Notes: generated by a model not told the origin, from the letters alone. DNA of 64,000 nt from an uncultured Candidatus Saccharibacteria bacterium (GCA_964360335.1 CAYHVH010000002.1:804-64803), one strand, 5' to 3'. Shown: positions 3,505 through 43,601, counted from the first letter of the stretch. Numbers and translations: made by a program.

Positions 3505-3541
3505 ATAGAATTCTATATAGAATATTATATAGTTGAAAGGA
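3505..3541 (+). promoter_or_regulatory. Palindromic operator-like site plus RBS upstream of the antitoxin gene
   Basis: Perfect palindrome ATAGAATTCTAT at 3505-3516, followed by an A/T-rich TATA stretch and AAAGGAG 7 nt before the ATG at 3549. This is the usual arrangement for an autoregulated TA operon. Confidence 0.4.
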
Positions 3542-3548
3542 GACTAAT

Positions 3549-3833: not shown

Positions 3834-3839
3834 TACCGC

Positions 3840-4106: not shown

Positions 4107-4142
4107 ATTTTATATCCTCCAAAGCTGCCCGATTACGACGCT

Positions 4143-6895: not shown

Positions 6896-6986
6896 AGCTG
6901 GATTTAGTATATAAATTCCCGGACAAAAAAAGAAGGGCGGCGCAGAGCTTTTCCAGCTCTGGCCGCCCCGAATCAGTGGAGCCGGC

Positions 6987-7595
6987 CTACTGTCGGCCGA
7001 GGTTGCCGAGGTAGTCGACGTCGAGCAGGCAGTCGCTCTCAAAGGTGAGGATTGCCACGCTACCCGCTTCGAAGCGTGTACCGACCGCATCTAGTTCGAC
7101 TCCCAGCAGCGCGGCCAGTACCGGTTCCAGTCTGCCGCCGCCGTGACTGGCGATCCCGATAATTTTGCCCGGATAACCCCGGACATACTCCAGAATGGCC
7201 TCCGCCCCCTCTTTTCCACGAGCCATGAGTTGCTCGCGGAATTGAGGATCGCTTAATAGCAGTTCTTCAGCCGAAGTGCCGGTTTCCGTTGCGCGTTTCT
7301 TGAGAGCATCAATCTCTTCCGGCGCAAAGGGGTACCGACCGAGCAAAGCGTCCCCCAGTCGGGGATCGGCACTCGTGAGCGGGACGACTTCCCCCATCCC
7401 AATCATGTTGCAGTAGAGCGTGTCGATCGAGCGGAATTGCGGGGACGAAACCGCGACATCGATTGTTAAGCCCATTTCCTTCAGCCTGGAGCCGGATCTA
7501 ACCGCCCTTTTCCTGGATTCCTCCGGTAGCGCGTTCAAGGGCACATCCGAGCCTTCCCGGCTTTCGTGCCGGATAAACAAAACGGTTGTCTTCAT
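6987..7595 (-). CDS. Histidine-phosphatase superfamily protein (PGAM/SixA branch)
   Basis: N-terminal LFIRHESREG (RH catalytic dyad) and C-terminal GIASHGGG (second catalytic His). 202 aa. Visibly more GC-rich than its neighbours. Confidence 0.75.
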   Translation of the reverse strand: MKTTVLFIRHESREGSDVPLNALPEESRKRAVRSGSRLKEMGLTIDVAVSSPQFRSIDTLYCNMIGMGEVVPLTSADPRLGDALLGRYPFAPEEIDALKKRATETGTSAEELLLSDPQFREQLMARGKEGAEAILEYVRGYPGKIIGIASHGGGRLEPVLAALLGVELDAVGTRFEAGSVAILTFESDCLLDVDYLGNLGRQ

Positions 7596-7637
7596 CTTCC
7601 CCTCCGATTTTGGTTTTGGCCATCAAGAGTAGCATGT

Positions 7638-7666
7638 TTGCGGCTGTCCGTCAAGCTCTATATAAT
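7638..7666 (+). promoter_or_regulatory. Sigma-70-like promoter (TTGCGG-17-TATAAT) for paralog 5
   Basis: TTGCGG at 7638-7643, a 17-nt spacer, then TATAAT at 7661-7666. The in-frame ATG at 7679 is 12 nt downstream, giving a near-leaderless transcript. Confidence 0.4.
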
Positions 7667-7678
7667 TCAAATCAGAAT

Positions 7679-9214: not shown

Positions 9215-10590
9215 AAATAACTTGGAAACGCTTGTGGGCGAGAAGGTATGCGCCGTTTTTGGGCGGTATCTTCACTCTGGCCTTCAGCAGACGCAACCCA
9301 TACGGGTTCAGTCGGAACAAATTGTTCGTACCGGAGGGAGATTTGCATGCGTGCTATTTTGCAAAACGCGAATTTGAAAACATTGTTCGCAACTACGCCC
9401 GCTTTGTCCGAAAACAAAATTTAAAACGTTATGCCGTACGTTACGAAGCGTATTTTAAACGATTTCTTAAAGGAGCAAAGCAATTCGCCAGGATAAATTA
9501 CGCCACGCTGGACAACCTAGAACTTGCTGACTTATTAGAGAGGATTACGGCATTTTACGCCGATTATGCGGAAGTTCAGTATCTTGGTTTTGTAATTTTA
9601 GAGGGGCCGGGCAGGCAACTGGAAAAAGCATTGGCGCGATACGCTAACCAAACAGAAATTTCGCAATGGGTGGCAACACTCTACAAAATTCCGAAAATTA
9701 CAAAAGCCCGTTTGGAACTACTGCGGCTGGTTCGCGACCATAAGGCCAGCGCGAGCGCGTTGAGGAGATATCTGAAAAAATATTCTTGGATTCCGATATA
9801 TGATTTTGTGGATCGACCCTGGACGCTCAAAGACATAAAAGCCCAGGTCAAGGCCGTCAAAGATGCAGGCGCAGAAATCAAGCAATACCGGGAGAGCAGG
9901 CGCAAGAGTTTGCACAGACTTCATAACTTCCTGCGAAACTTGCAAAGCCGAAAACTGAAAAAACTGATTGAAATCGTCCATACATTTTCGTATCTCAAAG
10001 ATATGCGGGACGACTATCGGCGGCAGACTTATTTTCTTTTGCGCCCATTTTGGCAGGAAGTTGGAAAAAGGCTCGGGGTTACTTTCGTGCAGGCCAATTA
10101 TCTGTTGTCGGAGGAGCTGGTCAGGCTTTTAAGTACGGGGCAGAAGCCCAGCCTCAAGCTGATTTCCGCGAGGCAAAAGACCTATTCATTTTCATTGATA
10201 GGGGGAAAACTCCGCATTTTTGCCGGAGATTTGACCAAGCAATATCTGGTCCAGCATGGTACACAAGAAACAAGTATTCTCAAGGGGACCGCTGCCCATC
10301 CAGGAATTGTGCGCGGCCCCGCGAAAGTTATTTATCATAACGGCGAGTTTGAAAAACTTAGAAAGGGTGACATTTTAGTGACAGTCATGACCCACCCGGA
10401 GTTTTTACCGATAATGAAGCTGGCCGCGGCGTTTGTGACTGACGAAGGCGGAATCACCTGCCATGCCGCAATCGTAGCGCGGGAGCTTGAGAAACCCTGC
10501 GTTATCGGCACGAAAATCGCCACCAAAGTTCTGAAGGACGGCGATTTGGTGGAAGTCGATGCTGACGAAGGAATTGTAAGAAAACTGTAA
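9211..10590 (+). CDS. PEP-utilising-enzyme swivel-domain protein, paralog 6 (459 aa)
   Basis: ATGA overlap with paralog 5. C-terminus GTAAHPGIVRGPAKVI...GGITCHAAIVARELEKPCVIGTKIATKVLKDGDLVEVDADEG. The KKYSWIPIYDF motif is present. Confidence 0.85.
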   Translation: MKITWKRLWARRYAPFLGGIFTLAFSRRNPYGFSRNKLFVPEGDLHACYFAKREFENIVRNYARFVRKQNLKRYAVRYEAYFKRFLKGAKQFARINYATLDNLELADLLERITAFYADYAEVQYLGFVILEGPGRQLEKALARYANQTEISQWVATLYKIPKITKARLELLRLVRDHKASASALRRYLKKYSWIPIYDFVDRPWTLKDIKAQVKAVKDAGAEIKQYRESRRKSLHRLHNFLRNLQSRKLKKLIEIVHTFSYLKDMRDDYRRQTYFLLRPFWQEVGKRLGVTFVQANYLLSEELVRLLSTGQKPSLKLISARQKTYSFSLIGGKLRIFAGDLTKQYLVQHGTQETSILKGTAAHPGIVRGPAKVIYHNGEFEKLRKGDILVTVMTHPEFLPIMKLAAAFVTDEGGITCHAAIVARELEKPCVIGTKIATKVLKDGDLVEVDADEGIVRKL

Positions 10591-10601
10591 CTGTAATAAG
10601 T

Positions 10602-12059
10602 ATGGCGAAATATTTTAAATTCGGGTCGTGGTCTATTAGCATACTGCATTATTCTCTTTACTATTGGAATAAAAGAGAACTAGTTTTTCTGCGCCCAATT
10701 AGGTGGCACCAAGATCAACTAGCTGAATACCTCGGTTACAAGCAAGACGAAAGGCGAATGTATCGGATTTGGAATGATCGAATTGTGAAAGACGCTCAAT
10801 ATATGTATCGGTATGGGAAAGAACACGAAAAGAATTTTAGAAATGTCGTTAATTACTTAAACAAAAAAATATCGAAAGTTAAATCAGCTAAAAGATTAGA
10901 AATTCTTAGAATTTTTAATAAATACTGGTCCCTGCTTTTTCTGTCAGAACCTATCGGTGATATAAATCACACAGTAGATGAAATCTATACTAAAAGGATA
11001 ATGGGCCCCTTGAAGCAAATTCTCTATAAGATTGGCAAGGAAGAAAAGGTTACAGAATATATGCTGGGTTTGACAACGCCTTGGGAGTCTTTGCCAACAC
11101 AGAAAGAAGATATGCAATTCCTACTCTTTGCTAGAGACGTCAATAAAGGGAAAGTTAAAGATGTCAATGCATTTTTTCAAAAACATCTTAAGCAATATGC
11201 TTGGATTCCGGTATGGTATGATAATAAACCCTGGGATATAAATGACTTGAAATCTAGACTAAATTCAGAGCTTAAGTTTGGTGATTTTGCCCAGCGAATT
11301 AATCGACTAAAAAATTACGGAAAAAGTACCAAACTAATCAATCGCAAGCAAAAAGCCGAACTTAAAGTTAGCGGTAGGCTACTTCAGGACATAGACGCTC
11401 TTAGGTACTTCACCTATATTCGGAATCTAGTTGACTTGCACACCGGTTACATAGTGCATAAAGCCAGGCCAATTTATGAAAAAATTGCCAATTTTTTGGA
11501 AATTAGCTTTGATGAGTTAAAATATCTCACTCCGAATGAAATTCGACTTGGTTTGAAAAACAAATTACCGCTAAAAGCTGTTAAAAGTCAAATCACACAG
11601 CGGCAAAAATTTGCTTTGACAATCTTTAGCAGATCAAAACAAAAAGTCTTAGCCGGGCTTAAGGCAAAAAGAGAATATCTAAGAATTAAAGAGGAGATTC
11701 AGAAAGAATCACCTAAGAAAAGTGTGGAATTAAGGGATCAAAAGCTTAGCGGAATTGGTGCCTCCCTCGGTAAGGCCAAGGGCCGGGCAAGGGTAATAAA
11801 AAGCATTTCGGAGTTGAATACGATGAAAGAGGATGAAATTTTGATTGTACCCTCAACTTCTGTTGATTTCGTGGGAGCTATGAAAAAATCGGTCGCGGTA
11901 GTGACAGAGATAGGCGGTATTACTTGTCATGCGGCAATCGTTTCTCGGGAACTTGGCAAGCCTTGTATTGTTAATACCTTAATCGCAACAAAAGTTTTTA
12001 AAACTGGCGATCTTGTGGAAGTAGATGCGAATAAAGGGATAGTAAGAAAATTAACCTAA
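10602..12059 (+). CDS. PEP-utilising-enzyme swivel-domain protein, paralog 7 (485 aa)
   Basis: C-terminus GIGASLGKAKGRARVI...GGITCHAAIVSRELGKPCIVNTLIATKVFKTGDLVEVDANKG. N-terminus is very AT-rich. The KQYAWIPVWYDNKPW motif is present. Confidence 0.85.
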   Translation: MAKYFKFGSWSISILHYSLYYWNKRELVFLRPIRWHQDQLAEYLGYKQDERRMYRIWNDRIVKDAQYMYRYGKEHEKNFRNVVNYLNKKISKVKSAKRLEILRIFNKYWSLLFLSEPIGDINHTVDEIYTKRIMGPLKQILYKIGKEEKVTEYMLGLTTPWESLPTQKEDMQFLLFARDVNKGKVKDVNAFFQKHLKQYAWIPVWYDNKPWDINDLKSRLNSELKFGDFAQRINRLKNYGKSTKLINRKQKAELKVSGRLLQDIDALRYFTYIRNLVDLHTGYIVHKARPIYEKIANFLEISFDELKYLTPNEIRLGLKNKLPLKAVKSQITQRQKFALTIFSRSKQKVLAGLKAKREYLRIKEEIQKESPKKSVELRDQKLSGIGASLGKAKGRARVIKSISELNTMKEDEILIVPSTSVDFVGAMKKSVAVVTEIGGITCHAAIVSRELGKPCIVNTLIATKVFKTGDLVEVDANKGIVRKLT

Positions 12060-12450: not shown

Positions 12451-13305
12451 GTGAATAACATCACAAGCCGAATAGTTAAAAGACTAAAGCTTCCCAAACC
12501 CACGTCGTACAAAGGTGACAACGGCCAACTTTTGATTATCGCAGGAAGCAAGCAGTACCACGGTTCGCTTCTTTATGCTATCAAAGCCGCCAGTAAAATC
12601 GTGGATTTGATTTATGTGCTGACGACAAAGGAAAATCAGCGACTGGTGCAACTGCTGAAGAACAGGAGTGCAGGGTTTATATCCGTTGGCGACCTCTCCC
12701 TCATTCCCTCCCCTCGCCAGGGGAGGGAGGTAAAAGCTGATTGCGTACTCATTGGACCGGGGATGGGGACGGGAGAACGGACTTATAAACTTGTAGAGAG
12801 AGTTTTGAAGAGCGGAGTCAAAGCGGTCCTAGACGCGGATGCCATTAATGTTTTGGATAAAAAATTACTTAATTTACTCGATACCAATCATATTTTGACT
12901 CCGCATAAAGGGGAATTCGGACGGCTATGGCAGAAATCTTCGACCTCTCCCTCATTCCCTCCCCATCGCCTGGGGAGGAAGGCCGAAGAGTTGATGCACA
13001 GATATGGCTCTACGATTGTACTAAAGGGCAGGGTAGATGTCGTAGCTCACGCCGAGCAAGGCTTAAAATTTAACTACACTGGCAACGAGGGGATGACCAA
13101 GGGAGGAACGGGGGATGTGCTGGCCGGGCTGATTGCAGGGCTTTTCTGCAAAAATGACGCCTTTGCGGCGGCCGCGGCTAGCGTTTATATAAACGGCTTG
13201 GCTGGCGATGAGCTTTATAAAAAAGTTGGGCCTTACTATAATGCCGAGGATTTGGTAGAGCAGATACCCCAAACGCTATGGCGTTTGATAAATCCTAAGC
13301 ACTAA
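12451..13305 (+). CDS. ADP-dependent NAD(P)H-hydrate dehydratase (YjeF C-terminal, carbohydrate-kinase-like)
   Basis: Motifs YKGDNGQLLIIAGS..YHGS, VLIGPGMG, HKGEF and KGGTGDVLAG. Start assigned to the GTG at 12451, just after the VanZ stop; the track ORF extends upstream into VanZ. The gene contains two copies of a GC-rich palindromic repeat. Confidence 0.75.
   Translation: MNNITSRIVKRLKLPKPTSYKGDNGQLLIIAGSKQYHGSLLYAIKAASKIVDLIYVLTTKENQRLVQLLKNRSAGFISVGDLSLIPSPRQGREVKADCVLIGPGMGTGERTYKLVERVLKSGVKAVLDADAINVLDKKLLNLLDTNHILTPHKGEFGRLWQKSSTSPSFPPHRLGRKAEELMHRYGSTIVLKGRVDVVAHAEQGLKFNYTGNEGMTKGGTGDVLAGLIAGLFCKNDAFAAAAASVYINGLAGDELYKKVGPYYNAEDLVEQIPQTLWRLINPKH
12691..12730 (+). repeat. GC-rich palindromic element, copy a (intragenic, in-frame)
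   Basis: gacctctccctcattccctcccctcgccaggggagggagg. It has a 9-bp perfect stem (ccctcccct / aggggaggg) around a cgcc loop. It lies within the NAD(P)HX dehydratase CDS and keeps the frame. Confidence 0.8.
12941..12982 (+). repeat. GC-rich palindromic element, copy b (intragenic, in-frame)
   Basis: cgacctctccctcattccctccccatcgcctggggaggaagg. Its first 23 nt are identical to copy a, 250 nt upstream in the same gene. Confidence 0.8.
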
Positions 13306-13954: not shown

Positions 13955-16933
13955 ATGCAGAAGACTAAGATCGAACTCAAAACCAAATCTAAGATTTTAG
14001 AAGGTTTAAATGATGAGCAGGCCCGAGCGGTGACTCACGGCGAAGGGCCGCTTCTGATTGTTGCTGGGGCCGGTACCGGCAAAACAACGGTTATCACCAG
14101 ACGCGTGGCTTACCTGATTGAACGGGGAATAAAACCGGAGCAGATTTTGGCGCTCGCTTTCGGCGACAAAGCCGCTCAAGAGATGGAAGAACGCGCGGAC
14201 AAGCTTTTGCCCTACGGCTACTACAATTTGCAAATTTCTACTTTCCACGCCTTCGCGGAATCGGTCCTCAAAGAGCACAGCCTGGAGATTGGCCTGCCGG
14301 ATTTTAAGGTGCTGGACGAGGTCGGCCAGTGGTTACTCATCAGAAATAACCTGGAAAAGTTTGACCTTGATTACTACCGGCCTCTGGGCAACCCCACGCG
14401 GTTTATTAAGGCCTTGGTTACGCACTTTGCCCGGGCCAAGGATGAACTTATTACCCCCGAGGAATACTTGGGATATGCGGAAAAACTTAAATTAGTATCT
14501 GACCAAGACCCTTCGACTTCACTTCGCTCCGCTCAGGGACTGAAATCGTTAGCGCCCGAGCTTGCCCGCCCGCTGAAGCTAGGCGAAGGCTGGGTCGAGG
14601 GCCAGGAACTCAAAAGGATTGCCGAGGTCGCCAACGCTTATCACGTTTATCAAAGACTTTTGCTGCAAAATAGCGTTTTGGATTTTGGGGATCTCATCAA
14701 TTATACCCTAACGCTTTTCCAGAAACGGCCGCGCGTTTTGGAGCTTTACCGGAAGCGTTTTCAGTACATCTTGATTGACGAGTTTCAGGATACGAATTAT
14801 GCGCAGTACGAGCTTTTGAAATTTCTGGCTGCGCCGAAAAACAACCTCACGGTCGTCGGCGACGACGACCAGAGTATTTTTAAGTTCCGCGGTGCTTCGA
14901 TTTCCAATATTCTGCATTTTCAAAAGGATTACCCGGACGCGGTGTTTGTTTCTCTCACCAGGAATTACCGGAGCGGCCAGAACATCTTGGACGAAGCCCA
15001 CCGGTTTATCCAGCAGAATGATCCGGACCGGCTGGAGGTCCGCCTCCAGCTTTCCAAAAAACTCCAAAATCCGGAGAACCTAAGAGGGGAGATTCAGCCG
15101 CTTCTGGCGCAAGACTATATCAGCGAGGCCCGACTGGTGGCAGAGAAAATCCTGGAATTTTTGAACAAAGACCCGGGTTTGACTTGGGACGACTTTGCCA
15201 TCCTGGCGCGCTCCCACGACACGCTCAATCCTTTTATCACGGTTCTGGAGGAAAATCACATTCCACACATTTATTTTGCCAACAAAGGCCTGTACAAAAA
15301 AGCCGCAATCTTGGATATTTTGGCCTATTTCCGGCTTTTGGACAATTATCACGAATCGCAGGCTTTGTACCGGGTGGCGAATTTTCCGCTGTTCCAAATT
15401 TCCCACGCCGCCATTGTGGAGCTTTCACACTTTGCCAAAAGGAAGTCGCTCTCGCTATTTGAAGCCTTCCGGCTGGCCCCGGCCGTCTTAAACCTTGACG
15501 AAAAAAGCCGGGAGGGACTCCAGAAACTTTTAATCCTTTTGGAGCAGCACGCCAAGCTCGCGCGCGAGAAGAGCGCCGAGCAAGTCTACATTCAGGTGGT
15601 AAACGATCTGGATTTTGCGGCAGCGGCCCTCCAGGATTATCAAAACGGGAAATATTTGGAAAATTTTCGGCGGCGCATCCAGGATTTTCAGGTCCAAAAT
15701 CCGGACAAAACTCTAAAGAACTTTATGCGGGAGCTTAATTTTGAGCAAGAGGCCGGGGGACTGGGAGAGTTGGAGTTTGACGCGGAAGCCGGCCCGGAGG
15801 CCGTAAAACTCATGACGGTCCACGGCGCCAAGGGACTGGAGTTTAGCCACGTGTTTGTCGTAGGGCTGGTGGATAAAAGATTTCCAAGTCTGGAGCGGCG
15901 GGAAGCGATCGAGATTCCGCAGGCGCTCATCAAAGAGGTTTTGCCGGTGGGGGACATTCATTTAGAAGAAGAGCGGCGGCTTTTCTACGTGGCGATGACC
16001 CGACCCAAAAAAACCTTGTTTTTGACGAGAGCCCTGGATTACGGGGGCAAGCTTCAGAAAAAGCCTTCCCGCTTTCTAGAGGAGCTAGGGCTTGCCCGAG
16101 CGACGGGGGCGAAGCCGACTGGCGAGGTGGTTTTTGCCGGAACCAACACGTCCGGAAGACCGCAAAGATTGCCGCTCCCAAAGTTGTTTTCCTTCACCCA
16201 AATCTCTGTCTTTAGAAGTTGTCCGCTGGAGTACAAATTCAAATATGTCCTGAAGCTCCCGCTTCCCGGTCGGGCAAGTTTGTCTTTCGGACAAACCATC
16301 CACCAAACCTTGGAAAAATTTTTGCGTCTCACGAAGCAACACCGGGAAAGTCAGGACCTCTTCGGTCAACACTCCGGAGCCGAACCTCTGGACTTTGACG
16401 CTCTCCGGAAGCTGTATCGCGAGTCTTGGACTGATGATTGGTACGAAAGCCGCGCGCAAATGGAAGATTACCGGGACAAAGGCGAGAAGATCCTGAAATT
16501 TTTCCATGAGGACTCAAAAACCAACCCCCCGCGTCCGAAATACCTCGAGGCGAATTTTAAACTTAAGCTCGGGCCGTATCTCCTGCAGGGTAGGATCGAC
16601 CGGGTCGACGAAGCCCCTGGGGGTTTGCTGATCATTGACTACAAAACCGGGCCTCCCCGGGGCATCAACAAAGTGGACAAAGAACAACTCCTCCTCTACC
16701 AGTGGGCCACGGAAGAGTTTCTGAAAGAACGCGTCGCCGATTTGCAATATTGGTTTCTTTGGGATAGTCTGAAAAAACAATCCTTTTTGGGGAGACCAGA
16801 AGAGATTACTAAACTTAAGGAAGATTTCACGGCGACCATTTCCGAAATCGTATCCGCCGTGCAGGGCGACGACTTTTATAACCGGGATTTGCACATCTCT
16901 CATGACTGCGAGTTCCGGGATTTAGGACTATGA
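13955..16933 (+). CDS. UvrD/PcrA/AddA-type SF1 helicase with C-terminal PD-(D/E)XK (RecB-like) nuclease domain
   Basis: Walker A AGAGTGKT; helicase motifs (DEFQDT, VGDDDQSIF, TRNYRS, MTVHGAKGLEF, VAMTR). C-terminal GRIDRVDE...LIIDYKTG is a RecB-family nuclease motif. 992 aa. Confidence 0.85.
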   Translation: MQKTKIELKTKSKILEGLNDEQARAVTHGEGPLLIVAGAGTGKTTVITRRVAYLIERGIKPEQILALAFGDKAAQEMEERADKLLPYGYYNLQISTFHAFAESVLKEHSLEIGLPDFKVLDEVGQWLLIRNNLEKFDLDYYRPLGNPTRFIKALVTHFARAKDELITPEEYLGYAEKLKLVSDQDPSTSLRSAQGLKSLAPELARPLKLGEGWVEGQELKRIAEVANAYHVYQRLLLQNSVLDFGDLINYTLTLFQKRPRVLELYRKRFQYILIDEFQDTNYAQYELLKFLAAPKNNLTVVGDDDQSIFKFRGASISNILHFQKDYPDAVFVSLTRNYRSGQNILDEAHRFIQQNDPDRLEVRLQLSKKLQNPENLRGEIQPLLAQDYISEARLVAEKILEFLNKDPGLTWDDFAILARSHDTLNPFITVLEENHIPHIYFANKGLYKKAAILDILAYFRLLDNYHESQALYRVANFPLFQISHAAIVELSHFAKRKSLSLFEAFRLAPAVLNLDEKSREGLQKLLILLEQHAKLAREKSAEQVYIQVVNDLDFAAAALQDYQNGKYLENFRRRIQDFQVQNPDKTLKNFMRELNFEQEAGGLGELEFDAEAGPEAVKLMTVHGAKGLEFSHVFVVGLVDKRFPSLERREAIEIPQALIKEVLPVGDIHLEEERRLFYVAMTRPKKTLFLTRALDYGGKLQKKPSRFLEELGLARATGAKPTGEVVFAGTNTSGRPQRLPLPKLFSFTQISVFRSCPLEYKFKYVLKLPLPGRASLSFGQTIHQTLEKFLRLTKQHRESQDLFGQHSGAEPLDFDALRKLYRESWTDDWYESRAQMEDYRDKGEKILKFFHEDSKTNPPRPKYLEANFKLKLGPYLLQGRIDRVDEAPGGLLIIDYKTGPPRGINKVDKEQLLLYQWATEEFLKERVADLQYWFLWDSLKKQSFLGRPEEITKLKEDFTATISEIVSAVQGDDFYNRDLHISHDCEFRDLGL

Positions 16934-17942: not shown

Positions 17943-18908
17943 TTACCACCACCAAATCAGAATTGAAAGCAAAACTATCAGAATAAAAGTAAACAAGTGA
18001 TAACTGGAGTGGCTGCGTTCTATCACCGCTTCGTGTCTAGAAATGATGACGGAATCCGCCGAAAGCACCAGAAGTAAAAACACGCCAAACAGGGTAAAAA
18101 CGGTGCGGCTCAAGTTCCGCGCACTTCCCAGGAAATCAAAGACAGTCGAGCGGGCAGGTGGCGATGGTTCTGGCGCTACGAACGGCTCGGGCGCGCGTGG
18201 CGCTTTTTTTACTACGAGCGGCGGCGACTTGGCTTCTTCGCCGCTTGCCGCAGTCGTGGTCGGGGTGGAAATGGCTTCGGGAACGCTCAAGGGAGGTGGG
18301 ACTCCTGGTGCAGGAGGGGGGAGGGCCGGTGCTTCGGCCTTGACTTTGGGTTTGGGTTTCGCGGCTTCGGTCGGCGCGCCAAATAGGCTGGTAGTGAGGT
18401 TGGTATATCGCCCTTGATAATCGCCGAACAGCGCCGCCAGCCCCTGATCAAAAAAATCGGGATGCAAGAGGTTCGCTCGATGAGTGGGACTATCGATCCA
18501 GGCTTTGACTAATCCCTCGGAGGTTGCAAAATCTACTGCCAAATTTTCGCCCAGGATTTTGTACGGCGTATAACCGGCGGCGACGATTTTCGGCCAGACG
18601 TAGTTGCCATCGGGATCAACGTGAGCGAAGTAGTCGCGATCAATCATGTCTTGCGACTTCTCCGATGCCGCCGTAAGCAACGCTCGGTGGGTGAAGAGGC
18701 GAGTAAGATTGCGGTTCTCCCGCTCCTCGTTGATGAGGGACATCAAGGTTTGAGATTCGACTGCGGCGCTTTCGGCTGACAGGGCTCCCAGAAAAAGGCG
18801 CAGTAAAAGTAAGAGGATGCCGTAAATTAAAAAAGCTTTGTAGGAAAGGACGGGCGGGCGGAAATTATTCTCGGGGGAAGCTATTAAAAAACTGGCGATT
18901 TTGCCCAT
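17943..18908 (-). CDS. CAP/SCP/PR1-like (YkwD-type) domain protein with Pro/Ala-rich linker and C-terminal membrane anchor
   Basis: Central ...YFAHVDPDGNYVWPKIVAAGYTPYKILGENLAVDFATSEGLVKAWIDSPTHRANLLHPDF... matches the CAP domain. PKPKVKAEAPALPPPAPGVPPP linker. Hydrophobic N-terminus (signal/TM) and hydrophobic C-terminus. Confidence 0.7.
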   Translation of the reverse strand: MGKIASFLIASPENNFRPPVLSYKAFLIYGILLLLLRLFLGALSAESAAVESQTLMSLINEERENRNLTRLFTHRALLTAASEKSQDMIDRDYFAHVDPDGNYVWPKIVAAGYTPYKILGENLAVDFATSEGLVKAWIDSPTHRANLLHPDFFDQGLAALFGDYQGRYTNLTTSLFGAPTEAAKPKPKVKAEAPALPPPAPGVPPPLSVPEAISTPTTTAASGEEAKSPPLVVKKAPRAPEPFVAPEPSPPARSTVFDFLGSARNLSRTVFTLFGVFLLLVLSADSVIISRHEAVIERSHSSYHLFTFILIVLLSILIWWW

Positions 18909-21677: not shown

Positions 21678-23792
<2,115 letters not shown>

Positions 23793-25532: not shown

Positions 25533-25555
25533 GTATGTCGTTAGGTAAGTAAGGG

Positions 25556-25651
25556 TCGGACATCTTCGAGACCCTGATGGGCGACGAAGTCGGCCCGCGG
25601 AAGAAATTCATTCAAACGCACGCCAAAACCGTTAAGAATTTGGATATTTAG
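25556..25651 (+). repeat. Second copy of the gyrB 3' end (last ~96 bp including the stop)
   Basis: 25576-25651 is 76/76 identical to 23717-23792. The preceding 20 nt differ only at synonymous codon positions ([10 protein letters not shown] versus [10 protein letters not shown]). Confidence 0.85.
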
Positions 25652-25721: not shown

Positions 25722-25790
25722 AAAAAGGCCTTTCAAAAGGCCGATAAAGCGGCGCGCTACCGAAGCGTAGCTTGCCTATTAATAGGCATA
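25722..25790 (+). repeat. Structured tandem repeat unit 1 upstream of secE
   Basis: ggcctttcaaaaggcc hairpin, then gataaagcggcgcgctaccgaagcgtagc (stem gctac/gtagc), then the palindrome gcctattaataggc. A TTGCCT ... TATAAA promoter-like spacing overlaps it. Confidence 0.6.
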
Positions 25791-25842: not shown

Positions 25843-25930
25843 AAGAAAGGCCGCGAAAGGCCTTTTAAAAAAGGGAAAAAGGCCGATAAAGCGGCGCGCT
25901 ACAGAGGTAGCTTGCCCATTTATGGGCATA
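25843..25930 (+). repeat. Structured tandem repeat unit 2 upstream of secE
   Basis: aaaggccgcgaaaggcctttt hairpin, then gataaagcggcgcgctacagaggtagc (same stem, different loop), then the palindrome gcccatttatgggc. Second copy of unit 1 with compensatory loop changes. Confidence 0.6.
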
Positions 25931-26119: not shown

Positions 26120-26665
26120 ATGCCCAGGCAAATCTCGACCGGCGAAACCCATTGGTACGTGCTCCATACTTACTCGGGGTATGAGGACTCGGTCGTCCAT
26201 AATTTAAAACAGAGAATCGAGTCCATGGGAATGGAGGACAAAATTTTTGAAGTTATCGTACCGAAGGAGAAAAAAATCAAAATCCGGGAGGGCAAACGGC
26301 TGACTGTCGAGGAGAAAATTTTTCCCGGATATGTTTTGGTCAACATGATTGTCACTGATGATTCCTGGTACGTGGTCAGGAACACCCCGAATGTTACCGG
26401 GTTCGTCGGTTCCGGCACCATCCCCAGCCCCATCTCGGACGAAGAGGTCAAAGTCATCCAGAAACGCATGGGGATGGAAGAGCCGAAATACAAGATCGAG
26501 TTTGTGGTCAATGACCTGGTGAGGATTACCGATGGGCCTTTCAAGAGCTATGAGGGTAAGGTCTCGGAGATTGACGAGGCGAAAGGGAAAATTAAAGTAC
26601 TGGTGTCCATTTTTGGCCGGGAAACCCCCGTAGAACTGGACTTCTTGCAGGCGAAGAAACTATGA
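26120..26665 (+). CDS. nusG: Transcription termination/antitermination factor NusG
   Basis: NGN domain (WYVLHTYSGYE...VPKEK...FPGYVLV) and KOW (GKVSEIDEAKGKIKVLVSIFGRETPVEL). Confidence 0.9.
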   Translation: MPRQISTGETHWYVLHTYSGYEDSVVHNLKQRIESMGMEDKIFEVIVPKEKKIKIREGKRLTVEEKIFPGYVLVNMIVTDDSWYVVRNTPNVTGFVGSGTIPSPISDEEVKVIQKRMGMEEPKYKIEFVVNDLVRITDGPFKSYEGKVSEIDEAKGKIKVLVSIFGRETPVELDFLQAKKL

Positions 26666-26671
26666 TTATTA

Positions 26672-26836
26672 AGTAGTCCCTCGACTTCGCTCATCCTTCG
26701 GCAAGCTCAGGATGACCTTGAGCCAGCCGAAACGGTCAGGACATTCGACTTCTTTCAACAAGAGGTCGAGGTCCTGCGGTAAGCAGGAACGAGACCATGA
26801 GCGAAGCGAGGAGGCGTTAGCGAGGAACGAAGTCGA
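26672..26836 (+). promoter_or_regulatory. Structured 5' leader element shared by rplK and rpmA (copy E1)
   Basis: About 165 nt, ending ...gaacgaagtcgaATGgc at the rplK start. Segment 26742-26752 (cattcgacttc) is the perfect complement of 26829-26839 (gaagtcgaATG). cctcgacttcgctc pairs with gagcgaagcgagg. Confidence 0.5.
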
Positions 26837-27262
26837 ATGGCAAAAAAAGTCAAAATTACTCTCAAGCTACAAATTACCGCAGGCAAAGCCAGTCCCGCGC
26901 CGCCCATCGGCCCGGCCTTGGGCCAGCACGGGATTAACATCATGGATTTTTGCAATAAATTCAACGAGAAAACCCGTGACAAAGCCGACTCCGTGATCCC
27001 CGTACTGATTACCATCTACGAGGATCGGAGTTTCGATTTTATCCTCAAAACTCCACCAGTTTCGGACTTGATTAAAAAGGCTCTCAAAATAGAAAAGGGC
27101 TCGGGTAATCCCCTCAAGGCCAAAGTCGGGAAGTTGACCCGGGCGCAATTGCGGGAAATTGCCGAAGCCAAGCGGCAGGACCTCAATGCCAGCACCATTG
27201 AAGCCGCGGAAAAAATCGTAGCCGGCACGGCCCGGAGCATGGGTGTCGAGATAGAGCAGTAG
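26837..27262 (+). CDS. rplK: 50S ribosomal protein L11
   Basis: [43 protein letters not shown]... is canonical L11. Confidence 0.95.
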
Positions 27263-29073: not shown

Positions 29074-29159
29074 CTACTTAGCTTCGTCATTGCGAGGAGC
29101 TCTGCGACGAAGCAATCTGCATTGGGATTGCTTCGCTTCACTCGCAATGACAAAACAAT
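29074..29159. repeat. Long-hairpin intergenic element (family R2), copy A
   Basis: ...tcattgcgaggagctctgcgacgaagcaatc tgcattggg attgcttcgcttcactcgcaatgacaaaacaata. The ends tcattgcgag / ctcgcaatga are perfectly complementary and the whole element folds as an ~80-nt hairpin. Confidence 0.7.
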
Positions 29160-33067: not shown

Positions 33068-33170
33068 TTATTAATTTGGTCTTTGCGAGGAGTCCCGTCG
33101 GACGGAACGACGATGCAATCTCAAAGATTGCCGCGCCTCGTCGGACGAGGCTCGCAATGACAAAAAATAA
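33068..33170. repeat. Long-hairpin intergenic element (family R2), copy B
   Basis: ...tctttgcgaggagtcccgtcggacggaacgacgatgcaatc tcaaag attgccgcgcctcgtcggacgaggctcgcaatgacaaaaaataa. It shares the ttgcgaggag start and the ctcgcaatgacaaaa end with copy A; the internal arms differ but remain complementary. Confidence 0.7.
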
Positions 33171-34543: not shown

Positions 34544-36214
34544 ATGGCAAAAAAAGCAAACATTTCCAAAGCCAAGCAGACGCGTTACCTCTTTGTCATC
34601 GGGGGCGTAATGTCATCTGTGGGCAAAGGAGTTACTACGGCTTCCATCGGCCGTATTTTAAAATCCAAGGGCTACAACGTCGCCATCGTGAAATGTGAGA
34701 TGTACATCAATATTGACGCCGGCACCATTCGGCCCACAGAACACGGAGAAGTCTTTGTGGGCTCAGACGGGATCGAAGCCGACCAAGATTTAGGGAACTA
34801 TGAACGCTTTACCGGGAATCTTTCGCAGTCAGAAAATTTTATCACGCAAGGCCAAATTTACTTGGAGGTCGTCCGCCGGGAACGCAATCTAGGTTACGGC
34901 GGGGAAGACGTAGAGGTCATTCCGGACATTCCCAACGAAATTATCCGCCGTCTGAAAGTCGTGGAGAAGAAACAAAGACCGGATTTTATCATCGTGGAAA
35001 TCGGCGGGACGGTGGGCGAGTATCAGGACTTGTTGTTTTTGGAGGCGGCTCGAATGATGCACCTCAAGTCGCCGGAATTGGTACAGTTTGTCCTGGTAAG
35101 CTATCTCCCGATCCCCAAGACTGTGGGAGAAATGAAGACGAAACCCACCCAGTATGCGACCCGGACTCTGAATTCGGCGGGCATCGAGCCAGACTTCATC
35201 GTTTGTCGCTCCGAACAACCCCTGGACCGGAAGCGCAAAGACAAACTCTCGGTACTGTGCAACGTCTCCCCCGACGACCTGATTTCCGCTCCCGACGCGG
35301 AATCGATTTACGAGGTACCGCTCCTTTTGGAAAAGGAAAACTTGGGCGAGAAAATCCTGCGCAAATTCGATTTGAAACCGCGCTCGCGTGACCTTCGGGA
35401 TTGGCGGCTCTTAGTGAAAAAAATCAAAAAAGCGCAAAAGCCCCTAGACATTGCGGTGGTTGGCAAATACTTCGCGACCGGCGATTATACCCTGGTTGAT
35501 TCCTACATTTCAGTGGTCGAGGCCTTGCGCCACGCCTGCTGGCAAAACAACCGCCGACCGCGCCTGCATTGGATTAACTCCGAGGACTTTGAACAAAATC
35601 CCCGGGAGGTCGAGAAACTCAAAACCATGGCCGGGATTTTAGTCCCTGGGGGGTTTGGGGGCAGGGGGGTGGAGGGCATCATCTTGGCCATCAAATACGC
35701 GCGCGAGAAAAAAATTCCCTACTTCGGTCTGTGCTATGGCATGCAACTGATGATGGTGGAGTTCGCCAGAAATATTTGCGGCTTCAGCGGAGCCCATACC
35801 ACCGAGGTGGACCGGAATACCAAATTTCCGGTAATTGACGTGATGGAAGAGCAAAAGAAAAACCTGGCCGATAAAAATTTCGGGGCGTCGATGAGGTTGG
35901 GGAACTATCCCTGCAAAATCAAAAAGGGAACGTTGGCCGCCGCCGCCTACCAGACTACCGGTCCGGTGCTGGAGCGGCACCGCCACCGCTACGAGGTGAA
36001 CAATAAGTTTCGGAAAAAAATGGAAGAAAAAGGCATGGTGTTTTCCGGGGTTTATGCCAAAAAGGACCTGGTGGAAATTGCGGAACTTGACAAAAAAAAG
36101 CACCCCTGGTACTTGGGGACGCAATTCCATCCGGAATTTGATTCTCGTCCTTGGAAGCCGCAAGCGCTGTTCGACGGCTTTATCAAAGCCTGCATTAGGC
36201 TACATTCACAATAG
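34544..36214 (+). CDS. pyrG: CTP synthase
   Basis: N-terminal [17 protein letters not shown]; C-terminal glutamine amidotransferase GLCYGMQ with HPEF. ATG at 34544 (the track uses TTG at 34541). Confidence 0.95.
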
Positions 36215-36467
36215 TCCGCGGTTTTAGCCGGCCGTTAAAAGCCCGTTTAAGTTTTTTCTGAAACCTCACGACGCCGGTCTTGAGAGAATACAGCGTGTCG
36301 TCCTTGCCGAGCCGAACGTTTTTGCCGGGATGATATTTCGTTCCGCGCTGGCGGACGATGACGTTGCCGACTCGTACCGCTTGGCCGCCAAAAATTTTGA
36401 CTCCTAAACGCTTGGAGATGGAATCGCGTCCGAGACTAGTACTACCGCCCGCTTTTTTGTGAGCCAT
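36195..36467 (-). CDS. rpmA: 50S ribosomal protein L27
   Basis: [29 protein letters not shown]... is canonical L27. Its 3' end overlaps the pyrG 3' end by 20 nt (convergent). Confidence 0.95.
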
Positions 36468-36582
36468 TCGACTTCGTTCTCCGCTTTGCTTCCAACTTCG
36501 CTCATGGTCTTCGTTCAGCTTGCGGCTGAACTTCGACCTCTAATTGAAGAAGTCGAATGTCCCGAGCGAAGTCGAGGGACTA
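36468..36582 (-). promoter_or_regulatory. Structured 5' leader element shared by rplK and rpmA (copy E2)
   Basis: The reverse complement reads (ta)gtccctcgacttcgctc gggacattcgacttc...gaacgaagtcgaATGgc. It is near-identical to E1 minus a ~46-nt block, and again ends exactly at the r-protein start codon (rpmA). Confidence 0.5.
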
Positions 36583-37866
36583 CATTAACTTGAAAATAAA
36601 AATTTCCCGACTGACAAATTGGTCCTTGCGATCGTAGATGATGCTGTTGCGCTCTGTGACTCCGAGGAAAGGGAAGCGTTCTCGTAAAACCGAGGGCAAC
36701 GGATCAACAGTAGTGTAGCCAAGTTTTAGAAGCTTGTCAACCACCGGGAAAAAACGATAATCCCGGTCCTGACGATAAGCCGGGAGCGCGACGACGATCC
36801 GCTTCCCGGGTTCCAAAATCTTGCCGAAAACCTTAAATGCAGAAAGATAAATCTTCTCCAAAACTCTGAAGTTCCCCTGAATGTCCTTTTCCGCCGGCGG
36901 CTCGCTATACGCCGGGCCCAAGGTCCCTTCTGTGACTATCGCTTGGTATGAAAGTTTTGGCAGATTCTTGGGTAAATCCTTAACGTCGCTTAAATAAAGT
37001 TCGAAACGGCCAAGGGGAAGTTTATAGCGGTTTTTAATCCAGGACAGATTTTTTTCGGCATTCTCAATTGCTTTTTCCGCCAGGTCGGCCCCTACACCTT
37101 TAAAACCCATAATCATCGCCTCCTGGAGGATCGTCCCCGAGCCGACAAAGGGATCCAGCACAGCCGCTTTGAGGTTCTGGGCGGCGCTCGCGGGGAGCTG
37201 GGCCAGGTTCAGCATCATCTGGGCAACTTTGGGCGGCAGGAGGCCGATACGGGTGTCCCGAGCCGGTCGCTGGTAGTCCCGCCGACCGTAGTCCTCAAAG
37301 TCCTGGACAGAAAGGGTCTTCGCCAAGTAAATTCGCTCAAAGCCCACCAGAAAATCCAGCTCCGCGCCATGATCAAGAAGATGCTCGTTGGTTACCGTGA
37401 CCGATGGCAAAGAAATTGCCTCCAGCTGCGGCAAAACTCCGCGGACCGAAAAACCGGCCGCGGTCAGGATGCGCTTGAGCATCAGACCGACTCTCTTGGC
37501 CTCGCCGTGCAAAGGTAACTGTTTGGCCATCGGGTAAAGGGAGATTCCGAGCTGAATCTTGCCGGTCAAGTTCCCCAAGATTTTTTCTTTCAGTAATTTG
37601 GCGTCAAAATAATCCTTAAAAACGGCTGACGGGCCAAATTGTTTCTTCCGACCGAGGGCATCCAGCACCGCCATAATCTTGATTGTCCCGCCCAGCCGCC
37701 TCTGAAGCTTGGGAATGTCTAAGCTTTGTTCAACCTCGATAATTAAAACCTCGCGATAAAAATCAACGAGGCGAAAGCTCAAACCCATGTTTTCAAACAC
37801 TGCGAACAGTTCCGCCAGTGACAAAGTAAAGACCCGACCGAGGTGGAAAGCGTATTTAAACTTCAT
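36580..37866 (-). CDS. Class I SAM-dependent RNA methyltransferase (UPF0020 / RlmL/Trm11-like, THUMP-type N-terminus)
   Basis: LDPFVGSGTILQEAMIMG (the DPFxGSGT SAM-binding motif) and a later DPP-like motif region. 428 aa. Confidence 0.65.
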   Translation of the reverse strand: MKFKYAFHLGRVFTLSLAELFAVFENMGLSFRLVDFYREVLIIEVEQSLDIPKLQRRLGGTIKIMAVLDALGRKKQFGPSAVFKDYFDAKLLKEKILGNLTGKIQLGISLYPMAKQLPLHGEAKRVGLMLKRILTAAGFSVRGVLPQLEAISLPSVTVTNEHLLDHGAELDFLVGFERIYLAKTLSVQDFEDYGRRDYQRPARDTRIGLLPPKVAQMMLNLAQLPASAAQNLKAAVLDPFVGSGTILQEAMIMGFKGVGADLAEKAIENAEKNLSWIKNRYKLPLGRFELYLSDVKDLPKNLPKLSYQAIVTEGTLGPAYSEPPAEKDIQGNFRVLEKIYLSAFKVFGKILEPGKRIVVALPAYRQDRDYRFFPVVDKLLKLGYTTVDPLPSVLRERFPFLGVTERNSIIYDRKDQFVSREIFIFKLM

Positions 37867-41000: not shown

Positions 41001-43601
41001 ATGAATCTTTTGAGGAAAATTTTAGGAGTAGAAAATCCGGTCAGAGGCAGCGAGCATATGGTTGAGAAAATCAATCAACTCGAAAAAGAATTCGAGCAGC
41101 TGTCGCGTAAGGAGCTCCGGGAGAAGACTAATTTTTGGCAAGAGCACATCCGTAACCTCTCCCGGCCTCCAGCCACTCTCCCCTCGTCAGGGGAGGGAAA
41201 AGTTGTAGACTATCTAAACCAAATTCTTCCGGAGGCTTTTGCGGCAGTCCGGGAAGCGGCGAAAAGGACCTTGGGCCAGCGGCACTATGATGTCCAGCTC
41301 GTGGGAGGCATGGTGCTCCATCACGGCAAAGTCGCGGAGATGAAGACCGGCGAGGGAAAAACCTTGGCTGCCACATTAGCCGTGTATTTAAACGCCCTGA
41401 CTGGCAAAGGAGTGCATATCGTAACCGTCAACGATTATCTCGCGCGGCGCGATGCCTCCTGGATGGGTCAAATTTACGACTATCTGGGTTTATCCGTGGC
41501 CGCAATTCAGCACGAGCAGTCGTTTCTTTATACCGAAAAGGACCTCAAAGACGAAATCATTACGGAAGAAGAAAGAACCGGGGTCCAAACTGACGTCAAA
41601 AACTTGGTTTCCCGCTCGCGGAAAGAGGCCTACGCCGCAGACATTCTCTACGGGACGAACAACGAATTTGGCTTTGATTACCTGCGCGACAATATGGCCG
41701 GGAATCTGGAACAGATGGTTCAGCGCGAACTCCACTACGCCATCGTCGACGAGGTTGATTCGATTTTGATTGACGAGGCCAGAACGCCTTTGATTATTTC
41801 TGCGCCAGACGTGGAAAGCACTGACCTGTATCGGGATTTTGCGGGTTTTGCCAAGACTCTGACCGCCGAGGACTACCTGGCGGAGGAAAAACACCGGCAG
41901 GTTACTTACACCGAGAAAGGTTACGAGAAGCTGGAAAAAAAATACGGGCAGGAAATTTATAGCGACATCAAGCTCCGGCACCACGCCGACAGCGCCCTGC
42001 GGGCGGAGATTTTGTTTAAAAAAGACAAAGATTACGTCGTGCGCGAGGGCGAGATTCTCATCGTGGACGAGTTCACCGGCCGGCTGATGCTTGGGCGGCG
42101 CTACTCCGAAGGTTTGCACCAGGCCATCGAAGCCAAAGAAGGAGTGGAGGTCAAACACGAGTCCAAAACCTTGGCGACCATCACCTTCCAGAACTACTTC
42201 CGGCTTTATCAGAAACTGGCTGGGATGACCGGCACGGCCGCGACCGAAGCCGAGGAGTTTCACAAAATTTACAAACTCGACGTGGTGGAAGTTCCGACCA
42301 ACCGGGCGATGATCCGGGCTGACCTGCCGGACAGCGTTTACAAAACCGAGGCCGGAAAATTTCAAGCCATCGTCCGGGAAGTAAAACGCCGTCACGGGCT
42401 CGGCCAACCGCTTTTGATCGGCACCATTTCGATTGAAAAAAACGAACACCTCTCAAACCTCCTCCAAAAGGCCGGCGTCACGCACGAAGTTCTAAACGCC
42501 AAAAACCACGAAAGAGAAGCACAGATTATTGCCCAGGCCGGCCGCCTGGGCGCCGTGACTCTGGCTACGAACATCGCGGGCCGCGGCGTGGACATTATTC
42601 TAGGCGGCAACCCTCCCGATGGGGAGGAAGCCGAAAAAATCAAGGCCGCAGGCGGGCTCCATGTCTTGGGCACCGAACGGCACGAGGCGCGGCGGATAGA
42701 CAACCAGCTCCGCGGCCGCTCCGGGCGCCAAGGGGATCCCGGGTCCTCGCAATTCTTCCTTTCTTTAGAAGACGACTTGATGCGGCTGTTCGGCGGCGAC
42801 CGCGTAAAAGGGCTGATGGATACTTTGGGGATCCCCGAGGACGAGCCGATCGAGCACGGCATGGTGAGCAAAACCATAGAAAGTGCCCAAAAGAAAATTG
42901 AGGGGATGAATTTTGACCTGCGAAAGCACGTCTTGGAATTCGACGACGTCCTGAACAAACAGCGGGAGGTGATTTACGGGAGGCGCCGCAAGATTTTGAG
43001 GGGTGAACTGGACTTGAAAACTTATATTTTGGACAAAGTCGCGCAAGAGATTACAGAGATTGCCACTAACGAAACGGACCAAAAACTGGCGCATCAAGCC
43101 GTGAACGCAATTTTTCCGGTTCCTCAAACTCTCGGAGAGGCCAGAAAAGAAATGGAGCTGTGGATAAGTGATTTGACAAACGCCGCCAAAACTACCTACG
43201 AGGAGAAAGAAAAACGGTTGACCGCCCCTCTAATGCGGCAAATTGAACGAATTATCGCCCTGCAGGCCATCGATAATCTCTGGATGGAACACTTGGACAC
43301 CATGGATCACCTCCGGCAATCCGTGCGGCTCCGAGGTTACGCCCAAAAAGATCCGCTCGTAGAATACAAACAAGATGGCCTGCGGCTTTTTGAGCGGATG
43401 CTCAAAGAGATTGACAAAACCATCGTCTACACGATTTACAAGGTCGAGGTCAGGCCGCGGGAAGAGGTCGCTCCGGTGGGCCGGCCCGCTGAGCGGGCCC
43501 CGGGCCAAGCGAAGCTCGGCCGGAATGATCCCTGTCCCTGCGGTTCGGGCAAGAAATGGAAGAAATGCGGAATGATAAACGCGCCGTATCATAAAAAATA
43601 A
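41001..43601 (+). CDS. secA: Preprotein translocase ATPase SecA (with C-terminal Zn-finger)
   Basis: DEAD motor motifs (MKTGEGKTL, DEVDSILIDEARTPLIIS, TGTA) and the C-terminal CPCGSGKKWKKCG. It contains an in-frame GC-rich palindrome insertion near the N-terminus. Confidence 0.95.
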   Translation: MNLLRKILGVENPVRGSEHMVEKINQLEKEFEQLSRKELREKTNFWQEHIRNLSRPPATLPSSGEGKVVDYLNQILPEAFAAVREAAKRTLGQRHYDVQLVGGMVLHHGKVAEMKTGEGKTLAATLAVYLNALTGKGVHIVTVNDYLARRDASWMGQIYDYLGLSVAAIQHEQSFLYTEKDLKDEIITEEERTGVQTDVKNLVSRSRKEAYAADILYGTNNEFGFDYLRDNMAGNLEQMVQRELHYAIVDEVDSILIDEARTPLIISAPDVESTDLYRDFAGFAKTLTAEDYLAEEKHRQVTYTEKGYEKLEKKYGQEIYSDIKLRHHADSALRAEILFKKDKDYVVREGEILIVDEFTGRLMLGRRYSEGLHQAIEAKEGVEVKHESKTLATITFQNYFRLYQKLAGMTGTAATEAEEFHKIYKLDVVEVPTNRAMIRADLPDSVYKTEAGKFQAIVREVKRRHGLGQPLLIGTISIEKNEHLSNLLQKAGVTHEVLNAKNHEREAQIIAQAGRLGAVTLATNIAGRGVDIILGGNPPDGEEAEKIKAAGGLHVLGTERHEARRIDNQLRGRSGRQGDPGSSQFFLSLEDDLMRLFGGDRVKGLMDTLGIPEDEPIEHGMVSKTIESAQKKIEGMNFDLRKHVLEFDDVLNKQREVIYGRRRKILRGELDLKTYILDKVAQEITEIATNETDQKLAHQAVNAIFPVPQTLGEARKEMELWISDLTNAAKTTYEEKEKRLTAPLMRQIERIIALQAIDNLWMEHLDTMDHLRQSVRLRGYAQKDPLVEYKQDGLRLFERMLKEIDKTIVYTIYKVEVRPREEVAPVGRPAERAPGQAKLGRNDPCPCGSGKKWKKCGMINAPYHKK
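41160..41200 (+). repeat. GC-rich palindromic element, copy e (in-frame inside secA)
   Basis: ctctcccggcctccagccactctcccctcgtcaggggagggaa, with stem ctctcccct / aggggaggg and loop cgtc. It encodes ...SRPPATLPSSGEGKV..., in a stretch not matched in the E. coli SecA alignment (from memory; no search run). Confidence 0.75.

Follow-up and report, generated by a model that had tools for sequence, protein, structure and literature searches.

The REP2 repeats of Neisseria and the IR-A and IR-B repeats of Borrelia are 120-180 bp long and are found immediately 5' of several unrelated ORFs (Delihas, 2011; PMC3184786). These repeats contain a ribosome-binding site, the ATG that starts the ORF and two internal stem-loops, and their probable origin is the 5' UTR of one gene that was later copied elsewhere (PMC3184786). 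REP2 has been described as possessing a promoter and as having no terminal inverted repeats (PMC3184786). ERIC and Correia/NEMIS elements are imperfect palindromes of about 100-160 bp, with long and short forms that differ by an internal block. They are co-transcribed, fold in the mRNA and affect its fate, and they can be present or absent among strains (PMC3184786). Rickettsia palindromic elements (RPE) are palindromic repeats of about 100-150 bp that are tolerated in a small genome (PMC3184786). In translational coupling by RNA unfolding, as at rpmI-rplT, f1 genes VII-IX and MS2 coat-lysis, ribosomes on the upstream ORF open an inhibitory structure at the next start across tens of nucleotides. 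This type of coupling is established, including for rpmI-rplT at a spacing of +52 nt (PMC12548453).

Here, a family of intercistronic elements is described through its gene contexts, its exact junction with the ATG of the downstream gene, the constraint on its sequence, the covariation of one stem (P3) and its predicted folding energies. It was found in a 64,000-nucleotide stretch of DNA, called the window from here on. The first-pass annotation had placed two copies ahead of rplK and rpmA on opposite strands, and this was confirmed. Copy A (26673-26839, +) opens with a GTAG at 26673 and closes with the rplK ATG (26837-26839). Copy B (36465-36583, -) opens with a GTAG as well (36583-36580) and closes with the rpmA ATG (36467-36465). 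Both copies finish at ATG-GC. The length of the element is about 120 nt, which rises to 165 nt where a nested extra hairpin is included. The gene order at copy A is secE-nusG-[element]-rplK-rplA, followed by genes for dCTP deaminase and dUTPase. The closest named homologues of the L11 protein are from Candidatus Doudnabacteria (CPR/Patescibacteria), and the same L11 protein is also encoded on Hainich groundwater contigs from the 0.1-0.2 um filter fractions. The features of the two loci are as follows.

26120..26665 (+): nusG, the gene 5' of copy A (Pfam NusG and KOW, ORF list), with its TGA stop at 26663-26665
26668..26676 (+): 5' edge motif ATTAA-GTAG of copy A, with TAA and TAG in two frames
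26677..26692 (+): 5' arm TCCCTCGACTTCGCTC, whose predicted partner is either GAGCGAAG.. or AGTCGA-ATGGC (folds)
26693..26737 (+): nested extra hairpin, in copy A only (alignments), a hairpin of its own that holds the common unit GCAAGCTCAGGATGAC
26738..26771 (+): AGGAC and the P2 hairpin (CATTCGACTTCTT / AAGAGGTCGAGG, with a conserved U-G pair; RNAalifold, pair counts)
26772..26788 (+): P3 hairpin TCCTGCGGTAAGCAGGA, with a covarying stem (pairs 118:128 and 116:130 across copies)
26789..26814 (+): invariant junction ..GACCATGAGCGAAG and CGAGGAGG, the predicted internal partner of the 5' arm
26815..26828 (+): linker with a Shine-Dalgarno-like GAGGA (26822-26826), 10 nt 5' of the ATG
26829..26841 (+): start-codon segment GAAGTCGA-ATG-GC, invariant in all six copies of the family and paired with the 5' arm in the consensus fold
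26837..27262 (+): rplK, ribosomal protein L11 (Pfam Ribosomal_L11_N and Ribosomal_L11)
36195..36467 (-): rpmA, ribosomal protein L27 (Pfam Ribosomal_L27)
36465..36583 (-): copy B, the short form, with GTAG at 36583-36580, 5' arm at 36579-36564, P2 at 36563-36531, P3 at 36530-36514, GAGCGAAG at 36503-36496, GGAGA at 36482-36478 and GAAGTCGAATG at 36475-36465
36580..37866 (-): 428-aa methyltransferase-like ORF 5' of copy B (ORF list; weak Pfam methyltransferase hits)

The repeat is clear from exact matches. The window has exactly two occurrences of the sequence GTAGTCCCTCGACTTCGCTC, one at 26673-26692 (+) and the other at 36564-36583 (-), with a chance expectation of 0.02 (exact search). The 15-mer GAACGAAGTCGAATG is present at 26825-26839 (+) and 36465-36479 (-), and its last bases are the ATG of rplK and rpmA, respectively. 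Between these ends, invariant blocks alternate with diverged loops and a diverged linker. The two copies had been called near-identical. The conserved blocks are indeed perfect, but overall identity outside the extra block is 75% (92/122). A block of about 46 nt had been assigned to the rplK copy alone, and it is present only there, with a length of 45 nt (26693-26737). Recent intragenomic duplication was rejected, as at 75% identity the window copies are no nearer to each other than copies from different species are. The two complementarities proposed earlier are both present: CATTCGACTTC (26742-26752; 36559-36549) exactly complements GAAGTCGAATG, and the second helix, CCCTCGACTTCGCTC / GAGCGAAG..GAGG, lies within the minimum-energy fold of both window copies. 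The termini are also complementary, with CCYTCGACTTCGCTC and the reverse complement of GAACGAAGTCGAATGG agreeing at 13/15 positions, similar to a terminal inverted repeat. P2 and P3 are the two internal stem-loops of the element.

The methyltransferase-like ORF upstream of copy B ends in the element itself, where its stop TAG (36582-36580) is the TAG of the GTAG edge; this ORF is called likewise in sister contigs. No sigma-70-like promoter was found inside copy A or copy B in a scan limited to the sigma-70 consensus. A single weak sigma-70-like site ends at 26666, immediately 5' of copy A. An internal consensus promoter or terminator was rejected, with no such site in either copy. A conserved small ORF starting from the invariant ATGAGCGAAG was also rejected on our own reading of the sequence, where its frame and length vary by copy and it is never in the frame of the downstream gene. 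Rfam gave no family at gathering score in the whole 64-kb window and nothing relevant at E<=10 over 26500-27000. ARAGORN identified no tRNA or tmRNA in the window, and no rRNA is present there. Literature searches on the sequence motif, on CPR structured RNAs and on CPR palindromic repeats returned no earlier description of the element, and no described cis-acting RNA elements for these CPR/Patescibacteria lineages were found in Rfam (64 kb) or in the literature searched.

Metagenome contigs were scanned with a gapped pattern from the inner helices. Eight loci were matched, six of which have full-length relatives that represent four distinct copies. The contigs with these four extra copies are Doudnabacteria-like CPR, from a group of ultra-small bacteria of groundwater.

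L132: copy between the orthologous methyltransferase gene and rpmA
L133 (identical sequence in L134 and L139): copy between nusG and rplK
L135: copy 3' of dnaK and a 242-aa ORF, directly 5' of dnaJ
L138 (= part of L150 and L152): copy between rplE and rpsN

The family thus sampled consists of six sequences from about three species. All six distinct copies are on the strand of the downstream gene, which is rplK twice, rpmA twice, dnaJ and rpsN. All six close with ...GCGAGGA(A)CGAAGTCGA|ATGGC on the start codon of that gene, with zero offset at four different genes. A GAGGA or GGAGA is found 9-10 nt 5' of the ATG that starts L11, L27, S14 and DnaJ. At the other end, an ATTAA...(T)AG edge is present in every copy, and the GTAG head is present in four, the other two having ATAG and AAAG. 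The upstream ORF's stop codon is the element's own TAG in copy B, L132 and L135, and it lies 7, 11 or 19 nt 5' of the element in the remaining three copies (11-19 nt in L138 and L133). The earlier claim of an element copied ahead of unlinked genes, with the start codon within its 3' strand, holds for six copies. The first-pass annotation had also taken copies at unrelated genes that do not overlap start codons as the mark of a generic mobile repeat; dnaJ is an unrelated gene, but its copy, like every other, still ends on the start codon.

Copy number appears to be low, with two copies in the 64-kb window and one in the 20-kb ribosomal protein operon of L150. A covariance model (R1) returned zero copies in the window beyond A and B, and it added none in nine related rplK loci, in the L150 operon or in viral contigs. 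Pattern scans of the viral contigs gave nothing or chance matches.

The sequence of the element is far more constrained than that of silent positions in the neighboring genes. When the window is compared with L133 or L132, third-codon positions of nusG, rplK and rpmA show only 35-43% identity, which indicates saturation, and the element shows 79-81% identity over the same pairs. About 75 core positions never vary among the copies. Recent copying fails to explain this conservation because paralogous copies within a genome have diverged as much as orthologous copies from different genomes have. Variable positions are confined to the P2 loop, P3 and the linker. In P3, the pair 118:128 is C-G, U-A or A-U across copies and the pair 116:130 is U-A, C-G or G-U, so that pairing survives two-sided changes; this covariation score was matched by 1/500 shuffles. 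Four other pairs vary on one side only, and all four alternate between Watson-Crick and G-U. P2 has an invariant U-G pair. Since G-U pairs would become A-C mismatches on the opposite strand, the sense-strand RNA is probably the selected form. The window copies fold far better than shuffled controls (z of -6.3 for A and -3.9 for B). Folding energy alone cannot name the active strand because the reverse strands of both copies fold nearly as well. Together, the core invariance against saturated synonymous sites, the P3 covariation and the G-U pattern agree with the earlier opinion that this is not a random repeat, and they support a selected structured element working on the sense strand. Alternatively, the core could be invariant because a recombinase or transposase recognizes it.

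The start codon can be paired in more than one way. Two forward units, CCYUCGACUUCGCUC and CAUUCGACUUC, are present in the element along with three reverse units, GAGGUCGAAG, GAGCGAAG.. and GAAGUCGAAUGG, the last with the start codon. Several folds compete because the two forward units face three reverse units. In the consensus fold, GYCC.UCGACU at the 5' end pairs with AGUCGA.AUGGC to form a terminal helix, P0, which includes the AUG (100% of cells). This helix is short and interrupted (3 + 6 bp). Single-sequence optima vary by copy. In constrained folds of the five short copies, forcing P0 costs either nothing or no more than 2.6 kcal/mol relative to the optimum, and the resulting fold beats the best start-unpaired one by 0.8-5.7 kcal/mol. 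When a sequence is rich in repeats, gaps of a few kcal/mol between its folds are unreliable. For copy A, where the internal partner CGAGGAGG is extended, the prediction favors the start-free fold over the start-buried one by 4 kcal/mol. The AUG is partly paired in the predicted ensemble of all six copies. The predicted start-buried and start-free pairings are alternative states, one of which sequesters the AUG, and the element can be modelled as a three-way junction in which P2 is invariant and P3 covaries.

The first-pass annotation had the start codon held in an 11-bp helix and suggested a covariance analysis of the fold. The 11-bp helix is possible, yet it is outside the optimum of both window copies, where forcing it costs 8-12 kcal/mol. 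As the main fold, CAUUCGACUUC with GAAGUCGAAUG was rejected; it is 2.5-12.7 kcal/mol above the optimum in all six copies. In these models the 5' terminal arm is a likelier partner than CATTCGACTTC for a helix that encloses the AUG. Covariation was found in P3 only and cannot choose among the start-codon helices because P0, P1 and P2 are invariant among the six sequences.

The presence of the element at orthologous sites is variable. Other lineages with an L11 that is 72-84% identical were compared at the nusG-rplK spacer. The element is present there in the window and in L133 and is absent from L126, L127, L130, L140, L144, L147 and L149. The spacer is 6 nt in L127 and 22 nt in L140. It is unrelated and AT-rich in L126, unrelated in L149, and it contains other palindromic repeats in L130 and L147. 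L128 and L148 retain only the 3' end of about 20 nt beside the ATG (GAGGAACGAAGTCGAATGGC in L128, a variant in L148). N-terminally extended L11 homologues were tried as a detector of the element and rejected; P0013 has only a diverged 3' remnant. The most informative comparison is that of L144 with L133, where nusG and rplK have 98-99% nucleotide identity (third positions 95-97%). L144 has an unrelated 33-nt spacer in place of the L133 element. Divergence begins about 12 nt before the nusG stop, with five synonymous changes, and ends exactly at the ATG. In sequence, this looks like replacement of the whole junction via flanking homology and not a clean transposon insertion.

The building blocks of the element are widespread. 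The 17-mer GTCCCTCGACTTCGCTC, which spans the last G of the GTAG edge and continues into the 5' arm, is a member of a multi-phylum palindromic repeat. It was found at more than 120 loci in genome contigs, none of which has the whole element, from Sphingomonadaceae, Acidobacteriota, Verrucomicrobiota, Omnitrophota, Planctomycetota, CPR and others. It continues as ...GGGA in 116/133 matches, and its inverted partner lies within 200 nt in 71/133. As a probe for the family the 17-mer was rejected as too unspecific, the matched loci sharing the palindromic unit alone. The nested block of copy A has a 24-nt match with an unrelated genome (L041). The module appears to be a mosaic of ubiquitous palindromic units because the 5' arm and the nested block of copy A both hold common units. 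The unit GTCCCTCGACTTCGCTCGGGA(T/C)GA is nearly letter-identical in intergenic palindromes of many phyla (L006-L125) and is commonest in Sphingomonadaceae. No paper on this unit was found in literature searches.

Other palindromic repeats are present in the window. A 59-nt GC-rich repeat is found at 14543-14601 and 56261-56319, in copies that are 86% identical. It is in frame in a UvrD/AddA-like helicase-nuclease ORF (13955-16933) and in mnmA (55394-56584). Its position in mnmA is precisely the boundary of the PRC-barrel and C-terminal domains, and it resembles Rickettsia palindromic elements. A hairpin repeat, CCCTCCCC..GGGGAGGG, is present six times (12696-12725, 12947-12976, 21715-21744, 21788-21817, 41166-41195 and 56440-56469). 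One copy is in frame in secA, where it encodes PPATLPSSGEGK, one is inside mnmA, and two are 5' of the likely true start of gyrB (M52 of the ORF from 21705). A second palindromic type, GTCATTGCGAGGAG...CTCGCAATGAC, is found at 29086-29151 and 33079-33162 (z of -5.5 and -4.2), ending 8-9 nt before the starts of tmk (29160) and ftsX (33171). In L130 and L147, a comparable end, ...GGGAATGACAAAA, is found ahead of rplK.

Structured junctions of a different sequence are found in the ribosomal protein operon of L150. Four mutually unrelated long hairpins (5517-5625, 6627-6758, 8288-8420 and 11153-11285) fill the L2-S19, L22-S3, S17-L14 and L6-L18 junctions from stop to start codon, with z of -5.1, -9.4, -4.1 and -7.3, respectively. 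In the L2-S19 helix, the last A of the UAA stop pairs with the U of AUG. Long structured junctions are common in this lineage, and the family described here is special only in its reuse and in ending on the ATG.

A number of other observations were made in the window. Most of its genes have no Shine-Dalgarno sequence, and several have a TATAAT-like box less than about 20 nt from the ATG (for example, 17943-18908, 44432 and 55394), which suggests that leaders are very short or absent. The last 104 nt of gyrB (23689-23792) are repeated at 25548-25651 with 93% identity, after genes for a HAD hydrolase and neuB. Relatives have gyrB near secE-nusG with neither of these genes, and the arrangement looks like the scar of a two-gene insertion. 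A 29-nt segment just 5' of the secE start (25877-25905) is duplicated 142 nt further upstream (25735-25763), with a GGCC hairpin before each. The region from 19 to 12059 contains seven paralogous genes ending in a PEP-utilizers mobile domain, six in tandem and the seventh past a short gap. This array is broken up by genes for a Phd/YefM antitoxin and a HAD hydrolase and by further small ORFs.

We tentatively read the element as a portable intercistronic leader that acts on the sense strand and gates initiation at the downstream gene, probably by translational coupling. Its transcription as part of an mRNA, the gating of initiation and the triggering role of the upstream ribosome are all inferred. 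The module is located between co-oriented genes of a Doudnabacteria-like CPR lineage. Its 5' edge (ATTAA..UAG) often gives the preceding gene its stop codon, and its 3' end gives the next gene (L11, L27, S14 or DnaJ) a Shine-Dalgarno-like GAGGA and AUG-GC. With the 5' arm paired to the internal GAGCGAAG, the start codon would be free; with the arm paired to AGUCGA-AUGGC, it would be buried. A ribosome that terminates on the upstream gene, at 0-19 nt from the 5' arm, could strip the arm from the start codon. Because the arm starts at or just past the upstream stop, a terminating ribosome would occupy or unwind it, which would free the AUG. In this way the two genes may be translationally coupled over a spacer of 110-170 nt. 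The stops of L138 and L133, 11-19 nt upstream, count against coupling, as a ribosome terminating there would only partly reach the 5' arm, and the predicted preference of copy A for the start-free fold counts against this reading as well. The module appears to be assembled from widespread palindromic-repeat units and may be gained and lost as a cassette between near-identical strains.

A wider proposal is rather doubtful, namely that the family represents an undescribed CPR-specific class of cis-regulatory RNA, an exchangeable 'stop - fold - start' cassette that spreads between loci and strains much like a mobile element. Such a cassette would supplant a short gene junction with an upstream stop, a switchable three-way junction, a ribosome-binding site and AUG-GC. 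Initiation would then be set by a conformational switch, via the upstream ribosome or some other factor.

The same observations can be read in other ways. The element may do nothing for its host and be a selfish, non-autonomous mobile repeat of the MITE, REP or REPIN-like kind, in which case the core would be recognized by a transposase or recombinase and the ATGGC junction would reflect a target-site preference. This is unlikely. It would fit the presence/absence of the element between the 98-99% identical flanks of L133 and L144, its absence from most orthologous spacers, the inverted repeat-like termini, the 5' arm shared with a multi-phylum palindromic repeat and the other palindromic repeats inserted in the window, some of them in frame in genes. 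The GTAG head of four of the six copies would fit as well; such a head is a trait of REP sequences. However, there is no target-site duplication, the left flank (ATTAA..TAG) and the right flank (ATGGC) having no direct repeat, and no transposase or Y1/RAYT gene was identified by Pfam among about 60 of the 62 window ORFs. A mobile repeat also does not agree with an orientation that always follows the downstream gene at zero offset from the ATG, with the G-U-only variation that indicates sense-strand RNA, with an L133/L144 pattern (synonymous changes in the last nusG codons) that is like allelic replacement, or with so few copies. The autoregulatory leader proposed in the first-pass annotation, in which one ribosomal protein binds the structure and represses its own operon, is very improbable. 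Both window copies and the rpsN copy of a relative do precede ribosomal protein genes. Feedback by a single ribosomal protein is excluded because the element precedes dnaJ and three different ribosomal protein genes (L11, L27 and S14). Orthologous sites are mostly without it, and the suggested comparison with Rfam matched no ribosomal protein leader or other model.

A switch similar to a riboswitch, as was also proposed in the first-pass annotation, or to a thermometer could select the start-free or start-buried fold in response to a ligand, a protein or temperature, with upstream translation being irrelevant. The invariant core of about 75 nt has mutually exclusive pairings, the two UUCGACUUC copies compete for three partners, the AUG is partly paired in all six ensembles, and the heat-shock gene dnaJ is among the clients. 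We consider this quite unlikely, given that L11, L27, S14 and DnaJ share no common metabolite logic, that no Rfam family was matched even at E<=10, that the putative core has no covariation and that the element is dispensable in near-identical strains, which would be unusual for the sensor of an essential signal. It is improbable that the element is instead a signal for RNA processing, a long end-to-end helix whose cleavage, by RNase III or by the RNA itself, would part the cistrons and leave the downstream mRNA a defined, very short leader. The two ends of the element do pair together, the related L150 operon has its four other stop-to-start hairpins, and short or leaderless mRNAs are suggested by the window genes described above. 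Yet a terminal helix of 3 + 6 bp would be a poor substrate for RNase III, no known ribozyme model was matched, and the element's own Shine-Dalgarno-like GAGGA would be pointless if it were removed by cleavage.

If the element does act as a leader, a reusable start module for essential genes such as those of L11, L27, S14 and DnaJ would indicate how a tiny genome arranges translation within operons, and it would be an example of ubiquitous palindromic repeats domesticated into control elements. The element provides a covariance model for searches. It is also a warning for annotation, as such spacers and the nearby in-frame repeat insertions differ from ordinary intergenic DNA.

Among the known systems, Rickettsia palindromic elements are brought to mind by the palindromic repeats set in frame within three genes of the window (helicase, mnmA and secA). 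RPEs are known for insertions in coding sequences, whereas the present element lies between cistrons and is joined to start codons. ERIC and Correia/NEMIS elements are alike in having long and short forms, in being present or absent by strain and presumably in being co-transcribed. They have a TA target duplication, either orientation and a variable distance to genes; in contrast, this element is always in one orientation and always abuts the ATG. The structures at rpmI-rplT, f1 and MS2 are specific to their loci, whereas this one is portable, is found at several loci, spans 110-170 nt and would act by coupling of the same type. As in the REP2 and Borrelia IR repeats, a ribosome-binding site, together with an ATG, is supplied to unrelated ORFs and two internal stem-loops are present. 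Unlike REP2, the element has no detectable sigma-70-like promoter, and its complementary termini include the start codon. It also differs in lying inside operons directly behind the upstream ORF, in its CPR host and in a repeat unit that is common to many phyla. The resemblance, drawn from the descriptions of REP2 and IR, is one of kind and not of ancestry, and the REP2/Borrelia IR class is the closest known kind.
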